Shown here one piece after another: positions 34,560 to 50,943 of a DNA stretch of 64,000 bases. The position numbers and the translations under genes were made by a program. This DNA comes from Sedimentisphaerales bacterium (GTDB lineage: Bacteria > Planctomycetota > Phycisphaerae > Sedimentisphaerales > Anaerobacaceae): contig OY970194.1 of NCBI GenBank assembly GCA_963708075.1, forward strand, positions 6,656,001 through 6,720,000, written 5' to 3'. The notes under the pieces were generated by a model. That model was not told where the DNA came from, made no database searches, and saw only the letters and a list, made by a program, of their open reading frames with translations. Positions within the stretch are counted from its first letter, which is position 1. The number at the start of each line of letters is the position of its first letter.

Positions 34560-35419
34560 GTGGGGGGTGGCCAGGGAAGGCCGGTTTCCGTATTTGTCGG
34601 CGGCTTGCGCCGGCGGCAGATGGTGCTTCTTTTCGCCTGCTGGTTGATCGAAGCAGTCCTTTGCGCCCTGTTCCTGCGAGGGGACAGCCGGCTTGTCGTA
34701 CCGACAATCCAAGCGGTTCCCGCCTCGCTCACGCCGGCATTCGCCACGAATGGGACCGGCGCCTTTTCCGCTCACCGCCTCGATGCCGGCGCCGGCTACC
34801 AGCCTGCTTTCTCTCTCGGCTGGAAAAATCTGCGCGCGAAAACGGGCGTCTCGGAGTCTTCAAAACGCCTTTACACAAAGTCATCAGAATTGACGACCTC
34901 CAAATGGAGTTTTACGAGCATGGCCGGAGCGGAGCCGAAGCGGCAGCTCCCCACACGGCCCGCCGACAGGATCCATCTACGGACGATGGAGCCCCCGACA
35001 TCGAGGCCCGGTTTACCGAGGTGTTCGATGCCTTCCGGAACGAGTTCCGACCGGAAACCCGCGGCATGATCATGGACAGTCCCTTTCCCATGGACATGAG
35101 CAATGTCTCGAAGGTGATCATCCGCGGCTTGGACTATCGTGTCCTTCGCGGCGGTCAACTGGAGCTGGGCATCCGGTGCCGCAGCGCCATTGCCTCGGGC
35201 TCCGAGATCGAGCTGCGGGGCGGAGTATTGATCCAGGTGGAGGGCAGAAAGCTCTTGAGCAACTACGTTTTGTGGGACATGGAGAGGAGTCAGTTCTCCG
35301 TGCCGGGTACCTATATTCTGGATCGCAACGGTGTGCCGGTCCGAGGGGACGGCATTCGCTGCGATCATCATCTGCAACCTTTGGGGACGCCAAAGGTTTA
35401 CAGCAAGAAAGGAGCATAG
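34560..35419 (+). CDS. Membrane-anchored hypothetical protein with an LptC-like C-terminal beta region (apparent frameshift near 34838; start uncertain)
   Basis: The TM segment in ORF 34560 joins ORF 34487 at ...WKNLR/ENGRLGVFKT. The C-terminus L.S..VLWD......VPG...GDGIRCD..L resembles LptC. Confidence 0.5.
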
Positions 35420-35421
35420 AA

Positions 35422-38400
35422 ATGGACAGGAGGTTCATCATTCTAACGATTGCTGCCACGATGTGTGTCGGCCAGCTTGCTTGGCGCAGGGAACGGACCC
35501 GAACCAGTTTGACTACACACTTCCGGCCATCGAGCAGTTCGCCTCGACGGGAACGCTCGCCGGCATGACGCAGGCGTACCAGACGCTCAATGAAGGCGTC
35601 AACGACCCGAATGTGACCGGGGACAGGAGGCAGCTCATCCTGCTGCACGTGGCGGCGCGCGCCGGAATGCTTGTGTTCGACACGGACAACGTGGCCGTCG
35701 ACACCAGCCTCCTGGAGGTCGTGCAGCCCCTGGGCATCACGATCACGGGCAACAAGTTCTTCTCGGCGGATCCGAATGATCCGGCGTTGATCGAGCTTGT
35801 CCTGCCGCTCGATCCCGAGGACCCGAACTGCCTGGTGATCCCGCCGGGGGCCGATGTAGAGGCCGCCGCCGGCGCGATCAATACGGAGATTCTGCCTGAG
35901 CTCGACAGCATTCTCGCCGAGCTGAACCAGGTCACGAATTCGCCGGCGTTCGTCATGACTCTGCCGGCCGCCCAGACGGGCCTGGAGGCGGACATCGAGG
36001 TGGACTGGGGCGACGTGCTGGCGCTGAGGACGGCGTTGCTGTCGCTCAAGACCCTCCTGTACGCTCTGGCCAGCCCGCCGTACGATCTGCAGATCGACCT
36101 GACCAATCCGATCTTCACCGGCTGGGAGTGCCAGATCCTGCCGGAGACCACAACCATCAACACGATCCTCAACGCATATCCCAACCTGCTTGAGATTCTC
36201 CCCGGCATCGGGACTGCCAGGTTGGCACAGACAAAAACAGATCTTCTTGCCGCGCTCGACGCCGGGATCGCCGCGCTCGACAGTATTCTCGCCGAGACGG
36301 ACGATCAGTCGAACGATTTGCTGATGATGGAGGCCGAAGACAGACCTCAGAATATAGCGCTCAGGACGGAATTGGTGAAGTTCCGGAATTCCCTGGCCAG
36401 TGGCACGGCTGCCACGTACACATTTGGGTCCAGCCAGACGTTCAACCTCAACGAGGGTGCAGTTGTCATTGGCCAGCTTCGATTGGAGTTCGAGCCGTTC
36501 AGCCAGGAGGGCACCGGCTGGGTCTCCGTGCCGGAGACGGAAGGATCCCCCGCGTTCTGGGACATCGAACAGTTTTCCGTCGAGGGCACTACGATTCAGG
36601 GCGACATCAGTGGCAGTACCGGCATGGACTTCTTTACAGGCTCGTTTGACGGTACGATCTCGGCTGATGGAAGCCAAATCACCAATATGACCGTCCAATG
36701 GACGTCGCTCAGCAGCAGTGACACGATCACCGGCCTTTCGGCAATCCGGACACTCAACGAACCGGTCAACGTGCTGTTCAATCCCGGCCCGATTTTCGCC
36801 GGCACGATCAGCCCGAGAGACGCGCTGCCACAGTTTGACCCGAACGGCCAAGCGATTCCCGGCACCATGGGTCACGGCGTCAACAACGACGCTACGCTGG
36901 CCGGAGTCTTCCCCGGACTGACCCAGCAGGACTGGTTCCCGTTTGGTTTCGAGCTCTGGGGCGGCAACACGAACTTTATCGAGGATCCCAGGGCCGACTT
37001 CATTTTCAGGAACATCGACCAATTCGGGTACGTGAGACTGGGCCAGTCGAACGGAGGCAACCTGACCGGCTCGGGCAACTTCCAGTACTACGTGATTGTC
37101 GCCCGGGCGCGACCCTGGCGGACAGCGTCAGGGGCTCGACCGGCGACTTCTACAATGGATCGCTCTTCACAGGCACCGTGGAGAATCCGGAGAACATCCT
37201 CGGGGCTCCCGACAACCAGTTTGCCACGATAGGCGACACCGAGTTCCTCAACCTGGGCGGTGATTCCTTCTCTGGCTTTGTCGTGCTGACCAATCCGGGC
37301 GGTTGGACAAATGTGACGGTCATCACCGGCGGGGCCCAGACTCTCGTGACGGCCACCGTCACCCCCGGCGAGCTCGCCGCCAGCGGCACGGCCACCAGCA
37401 CCATCACGATCACCGTCCGGGATTCGTTCGGCAACGCGGTCGCGGGGATCGAGCCCAACCAGATTGTCGTTTCCACCACTCCCGCCGGCGCCACGATCGT
37501 TCAACCCACTACGGCCACGAATGCCGGCGGCCAGACGACGGCCCGAATCGCGAGCACTGAGGTCGGCACGCGGCGCATCAACGTGGAGCTGGACGGTGTG
37601 ATGTTCAGCGAGGCGGCCTCGGTCGTCTTCACGGCGGGCGCGGCTAATAAGCTCGTCTTCATCACACAGCCGGAAGGACCCTACGTCGCCGGCGAAGAGA
37701 TCACTCCGGCTCCCGTGGTCGCCGTAGAGGATGCACAGGGTAATATCATCACCACGAGCGCTGCAGCGGTCATTATGGCCATCGGAACCAATCCGGGCGG
37801 TGGCACACTCTCCGGAACGACGCAACACGCGGCGGTGGGCGGTGCAGCCACGTTCCCGGACCTGAGCATCAACAAGGCCGGTGCCGGTTATACCCTGCAG
37901 GCCACCTCACTGGGCCTGACGTCGGCGGTGAGCGAGCCATTCGATGTCACTGCCGACGTTTCTACCGCTCGCCTGGTCTTCACCACGCAGCCGGCGAATT
38001 CTGCTGCACTGGGGGCGCTGATCGGTCCTCCGGTGGTGACGATACAGGATGCGTTCGGCAATACCGTGACGACTCTCGATCCGCTGGTAACCCTGGCCAT
38101 CAAGGCAGGCACCGGGGCCGAGGGCGCCGACCTGATAGGCGATGACTCTGTGACCGCCACCGATGGCGTCGCCACGTTCAACAACGTGAGAATCACCGGG
38201 GCCGGAACCGGTTTTCAGTTGACGGCCACCGCCACGGACATCACTGGATCGGTGGATAGCCAGGCGTTCAATATCCTCATCCAGCCGGCGATGACGATCG
38301 AGAAGACCGATGATTCCGATCCCGTCGATCCGAATGATGAAGTGGAGTACACGATCACATATGGCAACGAAGGCCTCGCTGACGGCGCCAACGTCGTCAT

Positions 38401-40714
38401 TCGGGAGACACTGCCGGCCGGACTGGAGTTTGTCAGTGCCGGCGAAGATGGTGTCTTCAGCGCCGGGACGATCACGTGGAACGTAGGCACTGTCGCGGCC
38501 GACACAAGCGGCCTGACGGTGAGCTTCGTCGCCCGCGTCACCGACTCCGTGGCCGACGGCGGCGTAATCACCAATAGCAACCTCACCATTGCCGCTGCGG
38601 GCCTGCAACCCGTCGGACAGGTGACGCCGGAGACTACGACGGTGAATGATAGAAGGGCGCCGCAGGTTTCCGGACAGATTCCCGAGCCCAACTCCATCTC
38701 TGCCGCACGGGATACGATCATCCGGGTCCATGTGACGGACCCCGGCTCGGGTGTAGACAGTGAAAGTGTCCTGATCTTCGTCGAAGGGGATCTCATCTAT
38801 GACGGCTCGGCGGAGACATCAGACGGTGAATACGATACCACCGGTGACGAGCAAGCCGTTCGGGGCATCACTCGGCGGACCGGAGATCCCAATGATCTCA
38901 CCTTCACCTTCCTGCCCTCGACCCGGTTTGAATACGAGCAACAGGTGGACGTCACCGTCGAAGCGGCGGACTTGGAAGGCAACGGGAACACGGTGAGTTA
39001 CTCCTTCTTCACGCAGATGCGAACGTTTGGCGCCAACGTGAAGGTGAACAGCGATACAGGTGCGGCGATCCAGGACAATCCGGCCGTTGCCGTAGAGCCC
39101 AACGGGACGATCTGGGTGGTCTGGGATCAGCGAGCCACCTCGACCTCGGACGCAGACGTCTACATCGCCAGGTTGCCGGCCGACGGAAGTGCCTTTGAGC
39201 CGTCGGTCCTGATCTACAACAACAGCCTGAATCAGGCGAACCCTGCGATTGCGATTGATGCTGCCGGCAGGTTGTATGTGGCCTGGGAACAGTCAAGTGC
39301 CACAGATCCCAACCGCTTCATCATGCTGGCCACCTCAACCGACGGTGAAACCTGGGTCTCCGATCCGAACAACCCGCCGTTGAGGGTCGATCCCGCTCCG
39401 CCGGAGCCAAACACGGTGGTCGTGGCGCGCAACCCGTCCATGGCCGTGGCTGAAGGCGATCGGGTGTACATTGCCTGGGAGGAAACGAGGAACAGCGGCG
39501 ACAGTGATATCTGGCTGAGAAGCTTCCACGCGGTGGCTGGATTGGCGGCCGCCACGCAGATCACCACGGATACCGCCAATCAGACCGAGCCGGTCGTGGG
39601 GATAGATTCCAACGGCGTGGTGTACGTGGTCTGGACTGACGCGCGAAACGCCGGGACGACGGGGACGGATATCTTCATTGCACAATCCACCATTGGGCCG
39701 TGGACGAATACCCCGGTTGTCAATACGCCGGGCAATCAGAGCAGTCCCACGCTGGCGCTAGCCACACAGGTGCATATTGCCTGGGTCGACGCCAATGACC
39801 TGATGGAGACCTTCCTTGGGTCGGAGACGCCGGTAAGCATCCTCGATCCGTGTGAGCCGGGTGCTCTGCCGCAGTTGCCAGGCATGGCGGCGGTGGAGAC
39901 GGATGCTAACGACAGAGTATTTGTGACCTGGGTGGACAGCCGCGATGTAATCGGTGCCAATAATGACACGGATATCTACTTTGTCGAGGGCGCCTTGCGC
40001 TTCGGGACCAACATCCTCGTCAACGACGACACGGGGGCAAGCAGACAGACCAAGCCCGCGATCGGCGTGGACGCCGAGGGCGAGCCGTTCATCGTCTGGG
40101 TGGATAACAGGAACGGCAACGACGATATCTTCTTCGCCGGTGCCACCGCGATTCGTCCGCTGGGGGTCGTGGCGGAGCCCAACCGCGTGACGGTGCCTGA
40201 CGTGCCTGACCTGGAGGTGATCATTCCGCCCGGCGCTCTGCCGGAGGGGATTGATGCCAACGACATCACTATCGCGGAAGTCACGAATCCGCCGCAGCCT
40301 CCTTTGACCGCGTTTGGCGTGGCCTACGATTTCGGGCCGAGCGGTGTTGTGTTCGAGGAGCCGGTGACGCTCAGGATCCCGCTGCCCGATGATGCTCCGT
40401 TGTTCCCCATCTACTTCGTTTCCCGCTACGATGCGGGTACCGGGACTTGGACTCAGGAGGGGATTCATAACCCCGCCAGGAGAGTTGACGGGCCCGAGGG
40501 CTCGTTCCTGGAGGTCCAGGTCGATCACTTCACCCTGTTCATCGTGAGCGGTGGAGCGGTGTCCGACGACGACGGCGGTGGGTGCGCGCTGTCACCCTGG
40601 AGCAACGCGGGGCCGGTGGACTTTATTGTGCCGTTTGCCGCGCTCGCCCTGGTTCTGCTCATGTGCAGCATCGTGGGCGGATTGCGGCGTCGTTCCGGCG
40701 GGACACGGGAGTGA
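35422..40714 (+). CDS. Large (~1,760 aa) cell-surface protein: invasin/Big_1-like, DUF11, propeller-like repeats, ZU5-like domain and a Cys-containing C-terminal sorting signal (frameshifts near 35472 and 37103)
   Basis: RBS AAGGAG and signal peptide MDRRFIILTIAA; ITVRDSFGN; KLVF.TQP repeats; IEKTDD.DPV...VEYTITYGN (DUF11); NPAIA.D repeats; IPPGAL...FGPSG..F..PVTL; tail GGGCALS-TM-RRR. Confidence 0.8.
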
Positions 40715-42537: not shown

Positions 42538-43497
42538 TTGAAGACATTGCATGAATGGCTTGAGGAGCAAGAGGCGGCGATAGCGCCGATGTTGGCACGA
42601 CAAGAGCGTGCCAAGCAACTCAAGGCCGAGGTACCTCCGGCTTGGCTATTCGTGGGGATGTGCGGGGTTGCCTGGGAAGACGGGTTGTTTGAGATCAAGC
42701 CTGGATTTCTTTCGCTGCGAAGTGTGGAGAATGCGCCTGACATCATGGACGTGTGTGCCGCTGCCGATTTTCAGAAGACCGACTCTCTCAGTGTCGGTCG
42801 CTATTCTACAGCGATCCGTGCAGAACTCGTGGTCGGAGGGCCTTCCGCTGAAGAGAAATACAACTCCGCCCGCTTTCTCCATACTCTTGCCTGGCGCGTC
42901 GCTGCGTTACTCAAGTTGCGGGGTTATTCCGCACTGGTATGTCCAGCGTCGGCTACCATTTCCTGGGATACAATCGCAGCCGCACCCAGCCATTCCGTAT
43001 GCTTCCACGTGCTTGACGACATTCCCAGATCCATCTCACTTTCCGACAAGAAGGTCGTTGTATCCAGAGATGATCTCGAATGGGTAAGCAATCATCTTGA
43101 TGCAGCGTTGCATCTCGGACACGAATCAGTATCGAGGAGGTTCGATCTTGCGTTCAACCTCGCGTACACATGGAATCACACGAGTGATGCTCGTGTAGCG
43201 ATTGCGAACCTCTGGTGTGCACTGGAGGCTCTTTTCGGGTGTGAAGATGACCGGCCGGTTACTCAGAAACTCGTCCAGCGGATTGTAGATTGGCTACCGG
43301 GCACCAGTACTGAAGACATAAGAGGTCTCTATGATCACAGATGTGATGCGGTACATGGGCGATGCCTGAACCAGGAGAAGATTGAATACATTCTCGGTGG
43401 ATCGCTGTCTTGTCTCCGAGCAAGCCTCATAAAGTGCATTGAGGGAAGGACGAAGCCTTTGCCTGATTGGAATGGACATGAGATAGGCCAGGACTGA
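42538..43497 (+). CDS. Apea-like HEPN domain protein (putative RNase)
   Basis: LWCALEALF followed by LYDHRCDAVHG (R-x4-H); visibly lower GC than the flanking genes. Confidence 0.75.
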   Translation: MKTLHEWLEEQEAAIAPMLARQERAKQLKAEVPPAWLFVGMCGVAWEDGLFEIKPGFLSLRSVENAPDIMDVCAAADFQKTDSLSVGRYSTAIRAELVVGGPSAEEKYNSARFLHTLAWRVAALLKLRGYSALVCPASATISWDTIAAAPSHSVCFHVLDDIPRSISLSDKKVVVSRDDLEWVSNHLDAALHLGHESVSRRFDLAFNLAYTWNHTSDARVAIANLWCALEALFGCEDDRPVTQKLVQRIVDWLPGTSTEDIRGLYDHRCDAVHGRCLNQEKIEYILGGSLSCLRASLIKCIEGRTKPLPDWNGHEIGQD

Positions 43498-43674
43498 CCC
43501 GGCGGGTGCCATGCCTACGTTCGCGCAGGCATGCTCTATGTGCACAGTTCAAACCACGAAGAACACCGAGAAGAATAGGCGCGGGAAATTAGGGCCTATG
43601 TATATCTTTTATACCCGGTGTGAAATGTGTAGGTGTGACCCTCGGTTCCCGGTGAATTTCAATGAGTCCTTAAG

Positions 43675-46600
43675 TCAGACCGTAAGCATTCCTCGGGTGC
43701 GCAGCTTCTTGATCCTGTTCAGTGCGTCCTGAATTTGGTCCTTCAGGTCCAGGACTCTGGGCTTGTCGCCTCCTTCTCTCGGTTGGCTCCAGTCGAGGTC
43801 TTTACATCGGGCCAGAGTCCTGACAAAACGAACGAGCGAGTGCAGTTCCAACATGCAGTGCTGATAATCGAAGATCTGAGAACCGAGAAAATGCGTTCGC
43901 AAAGAAGGTCCTCCTTAAGTCAGAGAAAGTGATGTCCGACAGCATCCTGGGTGTCTCATAGCGTCTCTCCGGTAGGTTCAAACACCTCGAATCCCCATAG
44001 AGCGTGTAGAACTCCTCCACGGTCGGCACGCCCGCGCACTGAAAGGCACGCTCGCAGATCTTCTGGCTCGCCATCAGGCTGTTGACCAGATCGATGCCAA
44101 GCTCTGTGTTCTCAGAGCCCTTCGTCATAATCAGATGCCAATCACCCCAGCAGGAGACATGTTTTGCCGCATCGCCGAACTCCAGAAAATGAGAAAGACT
44201 GATCGGGATCGGCATGATCCCAAGCTCCGCTCGTCGATTTTGCCAGAGGAACGGGGAACTCTCATTCCCTCGCGCGGCCAGATCATTCCGGGACGCGGAT
44301 TTCTTTTCCGCTCCTGGCGCCGCTGAATCATCCGGGGACGTGGATTTCTTCTCCGCCGTGAGCAGATCGACCAGGGTCGAGTACCACTGGCGGGCAAAGA
44401 CCCAATCGTTGCCCCTGCGCGTGGTCTTATTGCGACCCACGCTATACTCGTTGGCGAAATGAGCAACATCCAATGTTGAATCACCAGGGATGATTCCCTT
44501 GTGCAACATGACGGTCAATAAATAAAGGGCCTGAAACAACTTGTGTTTCGTCTTCTCCTCATCCTCGATGTCGTAGTCCGCCCCTATCTTAAGGCTACCG
44601 CCGCAACCCCATAAGAACTCCAACATAGTACAGAGCAGAGTATCCAGGGTCTGCGTTTCTATGACAAAATGACGCTTCGATGGTTCTGTTGGACTTGAGG
44701 CTCCTCTTCGGTCCCCCGTACTCATCAACTGAAGAAGCGTGGTCATCTCCTCCCAGGTCTGGAGCGGTCCCTGGGACAACAGCTTTCTGTCGAGGTACTG
44801 TTTGAGGTTCGTCTCAAGAAGATGGCGGACTCGCTCTTCCACGCCCTGGGCCTGGAACTTGGAGTACAGGTCTTGGGTCGGTTTATCGTACAGCGAAAGC
44901 ATCTTGTGTAGGGAGAGGACACCCTGAACGTAGTCGTTGAACTTCTCCCCGGCCTTGCCGTCTTTCCAGAGGTTCCGCTTGATGTACGGCCTGAGGAGGT
45001 CATCGCGATAGACGATGAAACTGACATTGGCGTTGTATGGAATCGAGATCAACGATCTGGCATCGCGCATAGCGAAGAGCAGTCCCGGCCGATGCATCGG
45101 TCGCTTGTTGTCCGGCGACAGCTCTTCCAATTCCTTGATGATCGTGCTCCGCCGCTCGCCGAACAGGCGGATTCTGTCTTCAGGTATGTCGCTCAGGAAA
45201 TGGTACGTGTTCCGCTTCTTCAAGATGAGATGATAAGTCGTCATCAAGCGGTACAGCGCCTGGTGAGATCTCTCTTGGGTACACAGGCTCCAGAGGTCTT
45301 TCATGGATTCAGGCTTCCCAAGCTCGCCGCACTGGGTCCCCGACAGCATCTCCGGCAATTTGGTAAACAGCGCTTTCAAAACCACGTATGTCTTCTTTGC
45401 GAGCGACTGACGTATAGTGCTCAGTTCCCTTAACTTGTTCGTCTCGTCTTCTTCTTCCTGCCTCTTGGGCGACTCCTTGTCTTCGCTCAGTTTACTGGTC
45501 GCCCCCTCTGTGCTCATCCCTTTCAACTTCTCTCGGATCGCATCTTCTCCCTTGGAGAGGACAAAGTCGATGTAGCTCCAGAACTCCACTCTGCATTCGC
45601 AGCCCAAGTGCCTGTCCAGAATCTCGCGTATTTTCCCTGCCTCCGTCTTCTCGCGACAATCCAGGAGCTCTTTCTTGAGCCTGCGTCTGGCACCTTCCGA
45701 TTTCATCCAGGGCATCGTCTCGTCCAGAGCTTCCAGCACCTCAGAAGGATCTTCTCGCCGCTGTGACAGTATCTGGCTGATCTGCTCGGCCCGCCTATTG
45801 AGCATCTCTTGGTCCGAGCTGCTCGGCCCGTCATAGGCCGCGCTCTCCAGCTCGTTCATCCATTGTTTCACATTGGCCGGGGGCTCCCCATTCATATTCA
45901 GCAGCGCTCGCACCGCGCTGCTCTGGCAGCATCCGGCTTCATCAATAGATTTCGACATCCGGTCCAGAATGGACTCGATCTCCTTCGCTTCCTCAGGATC
46001 CACGGTGTACTTTGAGAAAGGCTTGGCACCTGTCTGCGTCCCAGGGTCATGTTCAGCCTGCTTGCCTTTCTTTGACATCCGCGTGATTACGTACGGAAGC
46101 ACTTGTTGATTCTCCTTCGCAATCTGCCTGAGCACCCACCAGCAGAACCGGCAGAAGAAGCATTTCATACAGTTGCTTCTCCTCGACAACGACGCAAAGG
46201 CAATCAGCACCTCCTTCAGCACGATGGCCTCGTTCGGCTCCAAAATGTCGTTCAAACACTGCACCAAAGTGTCGGGACGGCCCATCAAAGACTTGTGCAT
46301 CGCACTGATGAGTTTGGCCACATCCTCAGGGTTCTTGTCCGGGCCTCCGACGCTGTCCTCGACGCCCTCGGCCACAGCGCGCCTCCAGCACAATTCGCCG
46401 TACCAGTTGACCCAGTAGTTATCGAAGCTCGACACATACAGATCGGTTCGACTGGGAACGTACCGCGACCGACGCTGGTTCATATAGATCCGCTGGAGAC
46501 TGCTGCGGTCGAAGTCCTCGTACCTCAACGCCGGGTACAGCTCCGGCAGGTCCTCTCTGAAGAACGTATCCCATACCTGTTTCTGTTGTGCGTTCTCCGT

Positions 46601-47750
46601 GAAAAGAAGGATGTGCCCGTCGCCAGGATAGGTTTCATAAAATGTCAGACCGGACCCCATGACGATGTCATAGGCGCATCGCCTGGACTGATTGGCCGCT
46701 TTTCTGGACTTAACGACACGGATGAAAGACCGGGATTCCAGCTTGCTACTCTCTTGTCCCGGGACTTTGTCGATGATCTTGAAGATGCTGTAGCCTACAG
46801 ACCCCTGCCGGCTGGCTTCATAGCCCGCCGGGACGGCGATGGGCTCACTGGTAAGCGTGATCTCCACATCCGACAGGAAACTCTCCGCCATGCCGGTCGC
46901 CACCCACGATGCCTCATGGTGGAACTCGCTGGAGACAAGAATCACGAAACGCTTGAATTTCTTTCGGACCATGGCGAACGCACGGTTCATTGTCAGTCGG
47001 GCTTGGGACTGACTCAACTCTGTGTATTGGCGAACGATTGCCAGCAGTGCGTTGATCGAATCAATGAACAGTATGCCTTCCGGCTGAGAGCGGTCGATCT
47101 CCTTGGGACTACCTTCGGAAGTCGGATTCTCGTCAGTCTCATCCTCTTCGCGCGAACCGGCCAGGATGCCGGAAAGAAAAGACCAACCCCAGTCAAGGAA
47201 TAGCGGCACCACAATGTCCTTGAACGGTCCTATGAGGAGCCCCGTACCGAACTTGGCGACACCCTTTGTCAATTCATCCGGCTTCTTGGCACCGGGTTTG
47301 GCTCGGATCTCCTTGACAACCTCCTTCATGAAGCCGGCAGATAGCGGCACCAACAGATCGCCTCGCTTCTGCTTCTGGAAGAAGTGGAAATCTGTCGTGA
47401 CCTTGCGGACGACCTTACGTGGATCGGTTCTCAAGAGAGAGAAGAAGAGCCATGAGTTTGCCAGAGACGTACCTGCAGTCGTCGCTGGCCAGATAGTTGG
47501 ACATGATCTGCAGGCCCAAAGTAGTCTTGCCACTGCCGGGGCCACCTCTCAACACGATGATGTCTCCTGGCCGGATGCCTGTGCCGGCGCCCAGGCTCTC
47601 GTTGTATCCCAACAGCTTGTCCACTGCCGGAATGTTGGTCTTGAACTCAGGCCTGACCAATGTCGACAGGTGTCGATCTTCCTCCATTCCTGTGGTTTGC
47701 TCCCTGGGCTTTTGTGCTCTTCGCTCCTCAGGACGTTCAGATGATCCCAT
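43675..47750 (-). CDS. KaiC/RecA-like ATPase fused to a solute-binding-protein fold (~1,350 aa; apparent frameshifts near 47427 and 43881)
   Basis: RBS GGAGG; TNIPAVDKLL, GGPGSGKTT, LFIDS, SDVEI and IRVVKSR; then IPYNANVSFIVYRDDLL, TWEEM, LCTMLEFLWGCGG and WGDWHL...SEN. Confidence 0.8.
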
Positions 47751-48172
47751 GTATAGCCTCCGAGATACTGTGCTGCCCCGCGGCTTTGGAATCTTAAAAC
47801 GGGGACGGCCACCTATTATCTCCCTGTGCTGTCACATCCCGCGCGTCTTTAATGCCGCACCGACGCTGATGCTTGAATGTTTGAACAGCTCCAGCCTCAA
47901 ACCGATCCGTCACGGTCTTTGGGAGTCGTCTACTCACTCAACGCGCACTTGCCGCAAGTCCACCGACTAATATTGTGACAAAGTCAGTCAAACACGGCAA
48001 GGAGAAAATGAGTCAAGAGCCAAAGTTTTTGGTGTGGCGGGACATTCGCGTCAAAGACCGCAAAGATTAAAGACCTGTGATATCCAGGGTTTTCTTGGTG
48101 TGTCTGGCGAGAATAGGTGTTGTTGGTCTCTGGTTGTTCGTTGTTGGTAGGGGCGGCGTTTGAAGAAGGAAT

Positions 48173-48308
48173 GGATTCCCGATCAGGTCGGGAATGACAT
48201 CCACGTGTGCGGGGCATATCTACGTATTTCTACGTAGTTCGCGGTTGGAAGGACCTGGATTCCTGATCAGAGCCTGCCCTCGACCTGATCGGGGGTCGGG
48301 AATGACAT
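48173..48308. repeat. Two GGATTCC...GGGAATGAC palindromic elements (family D)
   Basis: ggattcccgatcaggtcgggaatgac and ggattcctgatc...gtcgggaatgac. Confidence 0.65.
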
Positions 48309-48351
48309 CATTCTTTGAACCACGAATTGCACGAATGGCACGAATTAGAAG

Positions 48352-49248
48352 CTACAAGTCTCCGTTGGATTCGTGTGATTGGTGTGATTCGTTGTTTGTT
48401 GCCGTTTCATGCGGGAAATTCAGGGCGGCGTAGGGGCCGTGGATCGCGACGGCGGCGCGGTCGTAAGCTCTCGCGGCGTCGGCCTCGATGTCGTAGGAGC
48501 CGAGGTAACGCTCTTTGCCTTGGTCCTTGATGTGGGCGATCCATTTGCGGCGGCGCTTGTTGTAGGAGACGCCGAGGTATTGGCTGCTTGCGGTGCGGCA
48601 CTTGCGGCGGTTGGCGTTGTTCTGGGCGGTGGTGCAGTTGCGGCAGTTGCGCTTGCGGTTGTCCAGGCCGTCGTGATTCTCGTGGTCGCAGACGAGGTGG
48701 TCGGGCGTGTTCCTGATCAGGCGGTGCATGTAGATGCGCTTGGATCGGCCGTGGGTCTGGACGTTACGCACGGCGTAGCAATTCTCCACGTTCATCTTGC
48801 AGCACCAGCGGAACTGCGAGAGCCAGACGTAGTCCTCCGGATCGACCTTGGCGAACTTGCCCTGCGTCAGCGGGATCTTGCAGTAATCGCCGAATTGGTC
48901 GGCGAAGACGGGAAGGCCGTCGAATTTATGATTTATGATTTTTGATTTATGATTTGGGGCGGAGGCGTCCGATTTTTGATTTTTGATGTTTGATTTTTGA
49001 TTTGCGATGGGTGCAGCGGCATGCCCGATCGTTCTGCTCTGATCCCCGACCCCTGACCCCTGATCCCTCTTCCTGATTTCGGGCTTGGGGCGGTGTCGGC
49101 CGCAGCGGTCGGTGGGCTGGACGATGGGCCAGCGGGCTTGGGCGGTGACGGGGTCGGGCGCCGGCGGGTTGCGCACGCAGCATAAGCGGCCGGCGATCTG
49201 CCGGACGAAGTAACAACTGCCGCATTGTCGAGCGGGCATGTCGGGCAT
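48352..49248 (-). CDS. HNH endonuclease-AP2 domain protein with an N-terminal Cys-rich module and repeat-encoded linker
   Basis: IPLTQGKFAKVD, YMHR, DHENHDGLDNRKRN, SSQYLGVS and YLGSY..EADAARAYD.AA...HG.YA.LNF. Confidence 0.88.
   Translation of the reverse strand: MPDMPARQCGSCYFVRQIAGRLCCVRNPPAPDPVTAQARWPIVQPTDRCGRHRPKPEIRKRDQGSGVGDQSRTIGHAAAPIANQKSNIKNQKSDASAPNHKSKIINHKFDGLPVFADQFGDYCKIPLTQGKFAKVDPEDYVWLSQFRWCCKMNVENCYAVRNVQTHGRSKRIYMHRLIRNTPDHLVCDHENHDGLDNRKRNCRNCTTAQNNANRRKCRTASSQYLGVSYNKRRRKWIAHIKDQGKERYLGSYDIEADAARAYDRAAVAIHGPYAALNFPHETATNNESHQSHESNGDL
48925..49070. repeat. Heptamer arrays (GATTT[A/T]T; CTGA[T/C]CC) within the HNH-AP2 CDS
   Basis: Translated as NHKSKIINHK, NQKSNIKNQKS and DQGSGVGDQ. 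Confidence 0.8.
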
Positions 49249-49805
49249 GCCTTGTCCTCTCCGGCCCGGGCATCGCGGGCGAATGATGATTCGCCCCTAC
49301 GGCCCAATGGGCCGGTGACGCTCCTGGCGCTTAGGCTGGCTGGCATGGGCAAACCATCGGCAAGCTGCCGCTTGCCGCTGCCACCCAGAAATATCATCCG
49401 GCCGTAAACCGGGCCGGAAAATCGTCCCCCCCTATATGCTCGAAAGTGCGCGAATTGGTCGAAAATTGTGAGCCGGGACGCGGGCGAGGTGGATGTAAGT
49501 CCTTGCGGGGCAAGGAATAAGAAAATGTTGCATGGCGGGCGGATTGGGTTCTAAACCGGCGCGCGAATCGTGCGAAAATCGACTGAAAGTGGTACGGGGG
49601 GACACGATTGCGGATTGCGGATTGCGGAATGCGGATTGAGGGAGGAGGCCGGGACGGCCTGATGGGGGGTTGCGGCCCTGGATCGGGGTCCAGGGTGACA
49701 TGATGGCAGAGTTATGGCGGGGGACGCGGCGGGAATCGCGGATTGCGTGTAGTGCGGGCGAAACCGGGGGGGGCGGGTTTGAAACCCGCCCCTACGGCTT
49801 GATTG

Positions 49806-50798
49806 TCACTTGGTGATCGGCGTCAGGACGATGTTTCGGTACTTGATGCCGGTGTGGTCGCCCTGTAAATAAATTGGGCCGGGCTTGAGTTCGTCGGACC
49901 AGAGGGCGCCGCCGGTGCAGCCGAGGAGCGGCTGGTTGTCGATGATCTTCCGGCCGTTGAGGATCACGGTGGCGTGGCGGTCGAGTAGCGTCAGGTCGAG
50001 GGTTTGCCACTGGCCGGCGGGCTTCTCGGCGCCGACGGTAGGCGTGATCCGGCTGTAGATGCCGCCCATGTTGTGCGAGTCGAGGGGCTTGCCGGCGGTG
50101 TCGGCGACCTGGACCTCGTAGATGCCGCGCAGGTACACGCCGCTGTTCTCGCCTTTGGCGACGTTCAGCTCGAGCTTCAGATTGAAGTCCTCAAACTCGG
50201 CGATGGTGCGGAGGTTGCCGTAGTTGATGTGCGGCTTGCCCTCCTGCTGGACGGGCTTATTGACGAGGACGCCGTCCTCGACCGACCAGCCGCTCTTGGC
50301 GCCGGGATCGGTCAGCTTCCAGCCTTCGAGGTCCTTTCCGTTGAACAGTGTGACTGGCTTGCCAAACTTGGCCTTGGCCAGGTCCGGCTTCGGCGGCAGG
50401 GGGGCAATCCGTTTGCCCGTGAATGTCGCGGGGGCGGTCATGGACCCATCCGGTCGTTTGGTAACCGTGGTGAGCTTGAGGTTGTCGCCGTCGAGCGTCG
50501 CGGTGATCGTCTCGGTGGAAATCTTCTTGGGGTCCCGGGGAGCTTCATGGATGCGCGTCACGACAAGGGTGTCGCCTTTGACTTCGACCTCCTTCACAGG
50601 CACGACGCTGCCGCCGCCCCAGAGGATGCTGCCGGAGAGCCTGCCATCCTTCTCGACCACGCCGAGCCAGCCGGCCCCGCCGCCGGGAATGGTCAGCGCC
50701 CATCGGCCGACGAAGGGATTCGCCGCTTGGCCGGCGAATGCGGTGCAGGTAATCGACAAGCCCAGGACAACCAGTGCGTAACGCGTGCCTTTGTTCAT
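49806..50798 (-). CDS. DUF1080 (3-keto-disaccharide hydrolase) domain protein, exported
   Basis: LFNGKDLEGW, W.VEDG, NSGVYLRG.YEVQ, GQWQ and GPIYLQGDH..IKYRNI. Confidence 0.9.
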   Translation of the reverse strand: MNKGTRYALVVLGLSITCTAFAGQAANPFVGRWALTIPGGGAGWLGVVEKDGRLSGSILWGGGSVVPVKEVEVKGDTLVVTRIHEAPRDPKKISTETITATLDGDNLKLTTVTKRPDGSMTAPATFTGKRIAPLPPKPDLAKAKFGKPVTLFNGKDLEGWKLTDPGAKSGWSVEDGVLVNKPVQQEGKPHINYGNLRTIAEFEDFNLKLELNVAKGENSGVYLRGIYEVQVADTAGKPLDSHNMGGIYSRITPTVGAEKPAGQWQTLDLTLLDRHATVILNGRKIIDNQPLLGCTGGALWSDELKPGPIYLQGDHTGIKYRNIVLTPITK

Positions 50799-50943
50799 GT
50801 GATCAACCCTTTCCTTCACATAAGATCCAGCTATGCTTCGAGAGATCGTGCCCAACAGGATACCCGCGCGGCCGTGACAATGCAACAAGTGTCGGGCCGC
50901 TCGGTCTCCACGTGTCTGCGAAGATTTCAGGACATTTTCGGAT

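Follow-up and report, generated by a model that had tools for sequence, protein, structure and literature searches.

The stretch of DNA considered here, referred to as the window, comprises 64,000 nucleotides of a Sedimentisphaerales bacterium of the phylum Planctomycetota (assembly GCA_963708075.1, contig OY970194.1, positions 6,656,001 to 6,720,000), whose genome is one 7.5-Mb contig. On its minus strand lies a gene in which an ATPase of the KaiC type is joined to a solute-binding protein (SBP) that lacks a signal peptide. The features of the gene are as follows (window positions; aa, amino-acid residues):

43675..47750, minus: whole gene, KaiC-type ATPase plus cytoplasmic class II SBP, 1,357 aa with both extra bases discounted
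47757..47761, minus: ribosome-binding site GGAGG, 6 nucleotides 5' of the ATG at 47750, from the sequence
46634..47750, minus: single KaiC/RAD55-type ATPase domain, aa 1-372, from Pfam PF06745, KaiC matches in the PDB, conservation and alignment to the genome's own KaiC
47546-47523, minus: Walker A, within the ATPase domain
47428..47429, minus: extra base 1, an assembly error, missing from contigs of runs X1 and X2
47078..47428, minus: variable insert 1, lying after the catalytic Glu and before Walker B, with about 120 aa in this protein and 54-186 aa in the homologs covering it
43678..46630, minus: class II SBP of the trehalose/maltose-binding type without signal peptide, broken by inserts 2 and 3, from models, profiles and conservation
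45194..46396, minus: variable insert 2, inside SBP lobe 1, about 400 aa, all-helical in the model, with four conserved Cys (aa 530, 533, 698, 717)
43882..43883, minus: extra base 2, an assembly error, missing from the X2 contig and from the homolog alignment

The gene and its ATPase domain

As assembled, the gene is split over three overlapping minus-strand frames (47750-47415, 111 aa; 47545-43802, 1,247 aa; 43902-43675, 75 aa), which are separated by single surplus bases at about 47429 and 43883. Dropping both yields one chain of 1,357 aa, in accordance with the first-pass annotation, made from the letters of the window, which had proposed one open reading frame (ORF) of about 1,350 aa with a good ribosome-binding site after two repairs. 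Both shifts are assembly errors and the gene is real and intact, since contigs of other sequencing runs lack the extra bases and intact homologs span all three pieces. In this regard, the contig of run X1 is without the base at 47428 and otherwise identical to the window in its eight listed pieces, with zero depth at the second shift site, and contigs of run X2, from a strain about 95% alike, are without one base at both sites; these are single contigs with a depth of 2.5-4.4, weak evidence if taken alone. Six intact homologs of 1,251-1,303 aa carry the sequence of the three pieces in one chain, with 39-49% identity and 95-96% cover of the window's long frame. Further shifts were found in one of 21 genes compared with congeners, besides an apparent one near 37,180.

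All of the KaiC and SBP motifs that had been read from the sequence lie where they had been placed on the minus strand, and the assignment of the N-terminal 370 or so residues to the KaiC/RAD55 type is confirmed by PF06745, by matches to KaiC in the PDB and by near-invariant motifs. The best PDB matches of the family profile are RecA fusions and KaiC, and intact homologs reach or exceed the PF06745 cut-off, which the N-terminal piece of the window, being cut short, misses (23.2 versus 26.6). The conservation counts given here come from an alignment of 106 sequences, with the rows holding a residue in the column as denominators: the Walker A Lys is kept in 100/100, the catalytic Glu107 in 97/103 and the Walker B Asp230 in 104/104. 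The same holds for the Lys347-x-Arg349 motif (Lys 105/105, Arg 103/105), which we take to be the equivalent of the KaiC KMR motif. Ser290, a Ser in 104/105, stands at the S431 position of KaiC; in the alignment to the genome's own two-domain KaiC it falls on the first phosphosite, and Phe or Tyr occupies the second.

The RecA fold, Walker A, catalytic Glu and Walker B are shared with KaiC and with single-domain KaiC-like ATPases (PF06745; 1tf7, 2dr3 PH0284, 2w0m SSO2452), and the Ser and the Lys-x-Arg motif are further likenesses to KaiC, whose defining features were taken from the accessible text of one paper (PMC11680916). In contrast to KaiC, models and profiles give only one ATPase domain instead of the tandem CI-CII of the circadian protein, T432 and the KaiA-binding tail are missing, and a C-terminal SBP and a variable insert are present. 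Neither kaiB nor kaiA was seen among the neighbours scanned, a scan that mostly covered ORFs of about 100 aa and above. To judge from its conserved residues, the domain is probably an active ATPase and not a clock KaiC. The host genome also holds two two-domain KaiC genes (G000:C1:3786446-3792405 and 4608292-4611587), of which, to judge by eye, one precedes two KaiB-like ORFs plus a kinase-like ORF and the other precedes ORFs of sensor type.

The solute-binding domain, its pocket and the inserts

The SBP follows the ATPase without a linker, and the motif at the junction is among the best-conserved stretches. Pfam gives no SBP match in the window protein, and SBP_bac_1 is at or above its cut-off in 13 of 37 scanned members. 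The AlphaFold model of the window's long frame (predicted local distance difference test, pLDDT, 85.9; predicted template modelling score, pTM, 0.86) has as best match the MalE3 structure 6dtq (Z 20.7, root-mean-square deviation 3.1, 336 aligned); the model of the compact homolog P0125 (pLDDT 90.9, pTM 0.91) fits the same entry (Z 33.9, deviation 3.0, 376 aligned) and finds 1eu8 with Foldseek at E 8e-19. Moreover, a profile of the SBP part gave ten matches among PDB sequences, all of them disaccharide or sulfoquinovose SBPs (best 4e-12), and the first match in the ESM Atlas is a cluster of KaiC plus SBP, both for the window frame (0.84, a lead only) and for P0115 (0.97). The C-terminal part thus models as the class II SBP fold that had been predicted. 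The view that the whole remainder of the chain is SBP-like holds for fold and pocket and fails for about 400 aa, which belong to a non-SBP insert. The absence of a signal peptide extends to the family, a hydrophobic N-terminus being found in 0 of 105 homologs; four of the 105 have a single internal hydrophobic stretch, within or beside insert 1.

The pocket residues are highly conserved (whole-gene numbers): Asp443 and Trp446 in 106/106 each, Asn908 in 101/106, Trp1122 in 103/104, Trp1204 in 104/104 and Arg1289 in 102/103, together with a Glu-Asn-x-x-Gln loop whose three residues are kept in 103, 103 and 101 of 105. In the alpha-glycoside-binding protein of T. thermophilus, the aligned counterparts of Asn908 and Trp1204 are D118 and W287, both listed as mutated in PDB titles. 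MalE3 in turn has its RNW and PRP motifs at the pocket Asn, the two distal Trp and the Arg, residues that also align with T. thermophilus sites. According to the accessible text of two reports (PMC12096829, PMC7949145), the corresponding Asp, Trp, Trp and Arg are ligand contacts; by its position Asp443 would be D69/D70, the HMMER alignment starting later. In the pocket numbering of Athe_2310, W243, W280, R351 and, by position, D69 are kept, D121 is replaced by Asn, F119 by Asn or Asp and G279 by Asp or Glu, and E225 has no clear equivalent. The ligand probably keeps a glucoside-like core; plain trehalose or maltose is unlikely because two pocket positions differ. As in the disaccharide SBPs of ATP-binding cassette (ABC) transporters (T. 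litoralis TMBP 1eu8, T. maritima MalE3 6dtq, T. thermophilus 6j9w, LpqY), the two-lobed class II fold and the pocket Asp, Asp/Asn, two Trp and hinge Arg are retained. Unlike them, with which it shares 14-18% identity, the family has no signal peptide, no permease and a fused ATPase, has lost the subsite-1 aromatic, has Asp or Glu in place of a pocket Gly and carries inserts of up to about 500 aa.

The first reading had overlooked that the conserved core is broken by three fast-changing inserts. Between Trp446 and the PYNAN motif, compact members have as few as 48 aa and other members up to 552 aa; the window protein has 457. Insert 2 is modelled by AlphaFold as helices with good confidence; it has no fold match of its own, both whole-model searches having been filled by SBP entries. 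Its four cysteines, kept in 28/30, 29/30, 22/27 and 28/29 (32 long members) in an otherwise poorly conserved stretch, might form a metal site.

Relatives and their neighbourhoods

A profile search among 1.84 billion sequences retrieved 180 representatives at E up to 1e-30; databases list members as 'extracellular solute-binding protein' or 'RecA/RadA recombinase', both misnomers. By record title, the 26 genome loci belong to Planctomycetota, Verrucomicrobiota, Acidobacteriota, KSB1, Fibrobacterota, Spirochaetota and others, some bins being perhaps mislabelled, and the named relatives of the gene are mostly Planctomycetota. The family gene occurs in 3/251 genomes of the order, 0/7 congeners and 3/401 genomes of the phylum, one of these being a remnant broken by an insertion sequence (IS); the order and phylum counts include the window genome, and the genomes are incomplete. 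No empty insertion site came to light, the proA gene being located in three of five congeners and each contig ending no more than about 460 bp past it. The guanine-plus-cytosine (GC) content of the gene is 0.55 versus 0.60 for the genome, and family genes are below their flanks in 23 of 25 genome loci (L004, with a short flank, dropped) and in 24 of 25 metagenome loci, three of which repeat genome loci (26 of 38 examined, with duplicates and short ones excluded and L060 dropped). None of 44 pattern matches in viral contigs was confirmed as a relative.

A search for longer forms, set to 1,261-3,600 aa, returned eight long members, none over 1,336 aa; P0187, with its HATPase tail, and P0114, both chimeric or frameshifted in appearance, were set aside as architectures. 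Neither NCBIfam nor PADLOC has a model for the family, and the latter (2023 library) found 0 families in the window frame and only short Walker A matches, with E above 1e-4, in three homologs. A KaiC-type ATPase with a C-terminal cytoplasmic SBP-like domain is likewise present in an ESM Atlas cluster of 879 aa (score 0.97 for P0115) and in P0190 and P0260, which match the family SBP profile at E 2e-14 and 4e-7 (nine proteins tested). These proteins have two ATPase domains, whereas the window family has one and no fixed partner; both kinds are uncharacterised. P0188 and P0189, of about 700 aa, apparently have three KaiC-type domains and no SBP.

Five proteins (P0122, P0126, P0129, P0130, P0180) carry an N-terminal extracytoplasmic function (ECF) sigma factor, two scoring above and three below the TIGR02937 cut-off. 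They form one clade with a support of 1.0 in a midpoint-rooted FastTree tree of 74 sequences and 441 columns. Their layout is that of ECF sigma factors with C-terminal extensions, namely a sigma factor plus a C-terminal regulatory module, here made of KaiC and SBP, a combination not found described; the window protein differs from them in having no sigma2-sigma4 domain. Locus L045, outside this clade, has its sigma factor encoded separately, 458 bp upstream in the same orientation, and the 79-aa ORF lying between the sigma and ATPase genes does not resemble the linker of the fused proteins.

At the sister loci L002 and L067 (support 1.0) a TIR gene precedes the family gene by 51 bp on the same strand. 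The encoded TIR proteins are 36% identical over 145 aa, have the Glu-bearing motif and begin with a domain that by eye looks receiver-like; TIR_2 genes number 0-11 per genome in five genomes. Two larger homology matches, at L052 and L054, which had been grouped with these TIR neighbours, are HZS/FGE proteins and were left uncounted. In about one third of 48 loci, a gene of conflict or mobility type lies at most a few kb away, differing each time and without a matched control: Shango SngB/C (L019), JetD and Fic (L007), SIR2-NACHT (L013), RES (L054) and HNH (L049, L068, L073), besides weak matches to putAbiC, DUF6082 and a deoxyribosyltransferase (L014, L025, L051). The proposed absence of ABC permease genes was found to hold more widely, no permease family occurring among 110 neighbouring ORFs of genome loci (162 listed within 4.5 kb) or 53 of metagenome loci.

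Other neighbours were also recorded. In four lineages (L012:6135-6758, L014:11239-11937, L025:10226-10705, L013:2244-3248) the next gene downstream, on the same strand, encodes a small membrane protein. Two of these proteins have weak putAbiC and DUF6082 matches, and all may be membrane effectors or island passengers. A LysE-type exporter gene is directly downstream at two unrelated loci (L065:8022-8657, L077:6811-7281), and L058 has a 214-aa ORF (L058:2658-3299) with an R-x4-H motif and no Pfam match, 90 bp upstream on the same strand.

In the window itself, a 319-aa ORF at 42538-43497 (plus strand, GC 0.53, single copy in the genome) is convergent with the gene and has an R-x4-H motif near its end; it has no Pfam, PADLOC or NCBIfam match, and we presume it to be HEPN-like from the motif. 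As a partner it was discarded, having no homolog in loci L001-L040 and not being next after the gene in the X2 strain, whose contig diverges from the window at 43654, shortly after the gene's stop codon. The idea of a lower-GC accessory segment next to a HEPN gene is thus retained as to GC and reduced, as to HEPN, to a motif without partnership. Short repeats flank the low-GC segment (43500-43640, 48250-48310 and 49350-49650, with 2-3, about 12 and up to about 134 genome copies). At 48352-49248 (minus) lies a 298-aa ORF with a Cys-rich N-terminus, a stretch that looks HNH-like by eye and an AP2 domain (Pfam), a homolog of which is directly upstream of the family gene in L005. A 3-keto-disaccharide hydrolase (PF06439) at 49806-50840 (minus), 2 kb upstream of the gene, is probably unrelated, because it is present in five of five congeners without the family gene. 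Two long ORFs at 35331-40714 (plus; 633 and 1,178 aa), overlapping near 37,180 and with an out-of-frame tail on the first, are probably one large secreted Ig-like/DUF11 surface protein cut by assembly error.

A proposed ligand-gated switch and its alternatives

We propose, with a probability of about 0.6, that the protein is a cytoplasmic one-protein ligand-gated ATPase switch whose outputs are interchangeable between lineages. A small sugar-like molecule would bind between the SBP lobes, and their closure would be passed through the linker-free junction to the KaiC-type ATPase, changing its nucleotide state and possibly its phosphorylation, by the ATPase itself, or its oligomeric state, as in a ring. 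A partner protein would then read the state of the ATPase, the output being, according to lineage, a fused or nearby ECF sigma factor, the receiver-like-TIR protein, or another protein partner for the long form of the window, where the 400-aa cysteine-bearing helical insert would be the likeliest docking or second sensing surface. The conserved pocket, a requirement for any ligand sensor, supports the sensor reading, and the five relatives in which an ECF sigma factor is joined to this module support a signalling role. The original suggestion of an intracellular SBP sensor gating the ATPase is therefore sustained in its architecture, cytoplasmic location, missing transporter context and conserved pocket, from which we infer binding and gating. 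When full-length P0115 was modelled in complex with a second ATPase domain, ATP and Mg, the score of 0.29 (mark 0.32) spoke neither for nor against.

There is a precedent for an intracellular SBP sensor in SgrR/DsvR, which combine a helix-turn-helix with a cytoplasmic SBP_bac_5, as described in the accessible text of a preprint (bioRxiv 10.64898/2026.04.01.715812). There too a transporter-type binding domain works as the in-cell sensor of a one-component regulator, although with another SBP family, direct DNA binding as output and no ATPase. In a similar line, the available text of PMC5847659 reports fusions of KaiC to receiver and HalOD1 domains and cites a signalling-hub proposal. No description of the KaiC plus SBP architecture was found in literature searches covering titles and abstract openings, with subscription papers largely outside, and the first-pass annotation had likewise known of no characterised protein of this kind. 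A term search in the accessible text of a review of SBPs in signalling (PMC8050422) gave zero occurrences of KaiC, ATPase, fused and one-component.

Several observations weigh against the proposed switch. No neighbour conserved across the family was found and the window protein has no recognisable output domain, the sigma fusion having arisen once and being a minority form (5 of about 150 members seen). Only one of the two catalytic Glu of KaiC and one of its two phosphosites are retained, and a KaiC-like protein with a single Ser gave no autophosphorylation, as the accessible text of PMC11680916 has it. In the pocket, the aromatic at the F119 position is Asn or Asp and one Gly of the GGW motif is Asp or Glu (101/105), so that the ligand class is only partly constrained. 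Finally, the rarity, low GC and fast-changing inserts would suit a defence gene better than a housekeeping regulator.

These last traits lead to a serious, if rather unlikely, rival, an anti-phage or conflict sensor that shares the biochemistry of the switch and differs in purpose: its pocket would read an infection-linked molecule, for instance a TIR-made NAD-derived sugar-nucleotide, and the ATPase would trigger an effector or be one. Besides the scarcity among genomes, the GC deficit and the conserved core with its three inserts, the TIR genes of the two sister loci, set against 0-11 TIR_2 genes per genome, and the third of loci near conflict- or mobility-type genes fit this explanation. 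However, about two thirds of the loci lie among ordinary genes, the neighbours vary by locus, the TIR pairing is one event, and neighbour enrichment has a matched control in the TIR count alone. Apart from weak Walker A matches, PADLOC and NCBIfam offer no fitting model, and none of the members seen has a fused effector domain, the sole recurring fusion being the sigma factor. An elaboration that we regard as unlikely is a mobile ligand-gated KaiC-type family whose pocket reads an intracellular danger molecule, such as a modified glucoside or a TIR-made sugar-nucleotide, and drives an ECF sigma factor or an immune enzyme, the cysteine-bearing insert serving as a diversifying recognition surface; it would form a new class of surveillance receptor in bacteria.

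The flow might also be reversed, with the ATPase cycle opening and closing the SBP so that a metabolite is released or sequestered; alternatively, a permanent cofactor might sit in the pocket of a fixed scaffold. The whole-chain pTM of 0.86 and 0.91 in the models would suggest a rigid ATPase-SBP joint, the junction motif is highly conserved, and the models fit closed SBPs (target template modelling score 0.76-0.79) over several apo entries (0.60-0.68). We consider this improbable: a closed model says little because AlphaFold often gives one state, and the sigma fusions, made at the ATPase end, imply that the SBP end is the input side. Very improbable, finally, is a window copy that is decaying into a pseudogene, arose by chance fusion or encodes a fused transporter subunit. 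The two assembly frameshifts, a Phe beside the second shift where 82/104 homologs have Lys or Arg, and the IS-broken copy elsewhere would all be compatible with decay or accident. Against them stand independent contigs without the extra bases and X2 substitutions that are mostly synonymous (of the 40 listed of 89, 25 at third positions, and 24 synonymous codons versus 14 not). Further points against this rival are the 180 representatives, an ATPase of RecA/KaiC rather than ABC type and the lack of permeases among the neighbours scanned.

Altogether, this is a real uncharacterised family that combines known kinds, a KaiC-like switch and an intracellular SBP sensor. The sensing and control roles of bacterial KaiC-like ATPases outside clocks are largely unknown, and the family offers a candidate input, the conserved pocket, and a candidate output, in the sigma-fused forms, within one chain. 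The idea of KaiC as a signalling hub thereby becomes testable with one purified protein and one reporter. If the defence reading were true, the family would add a new type of receptor for intracellular danger signals.

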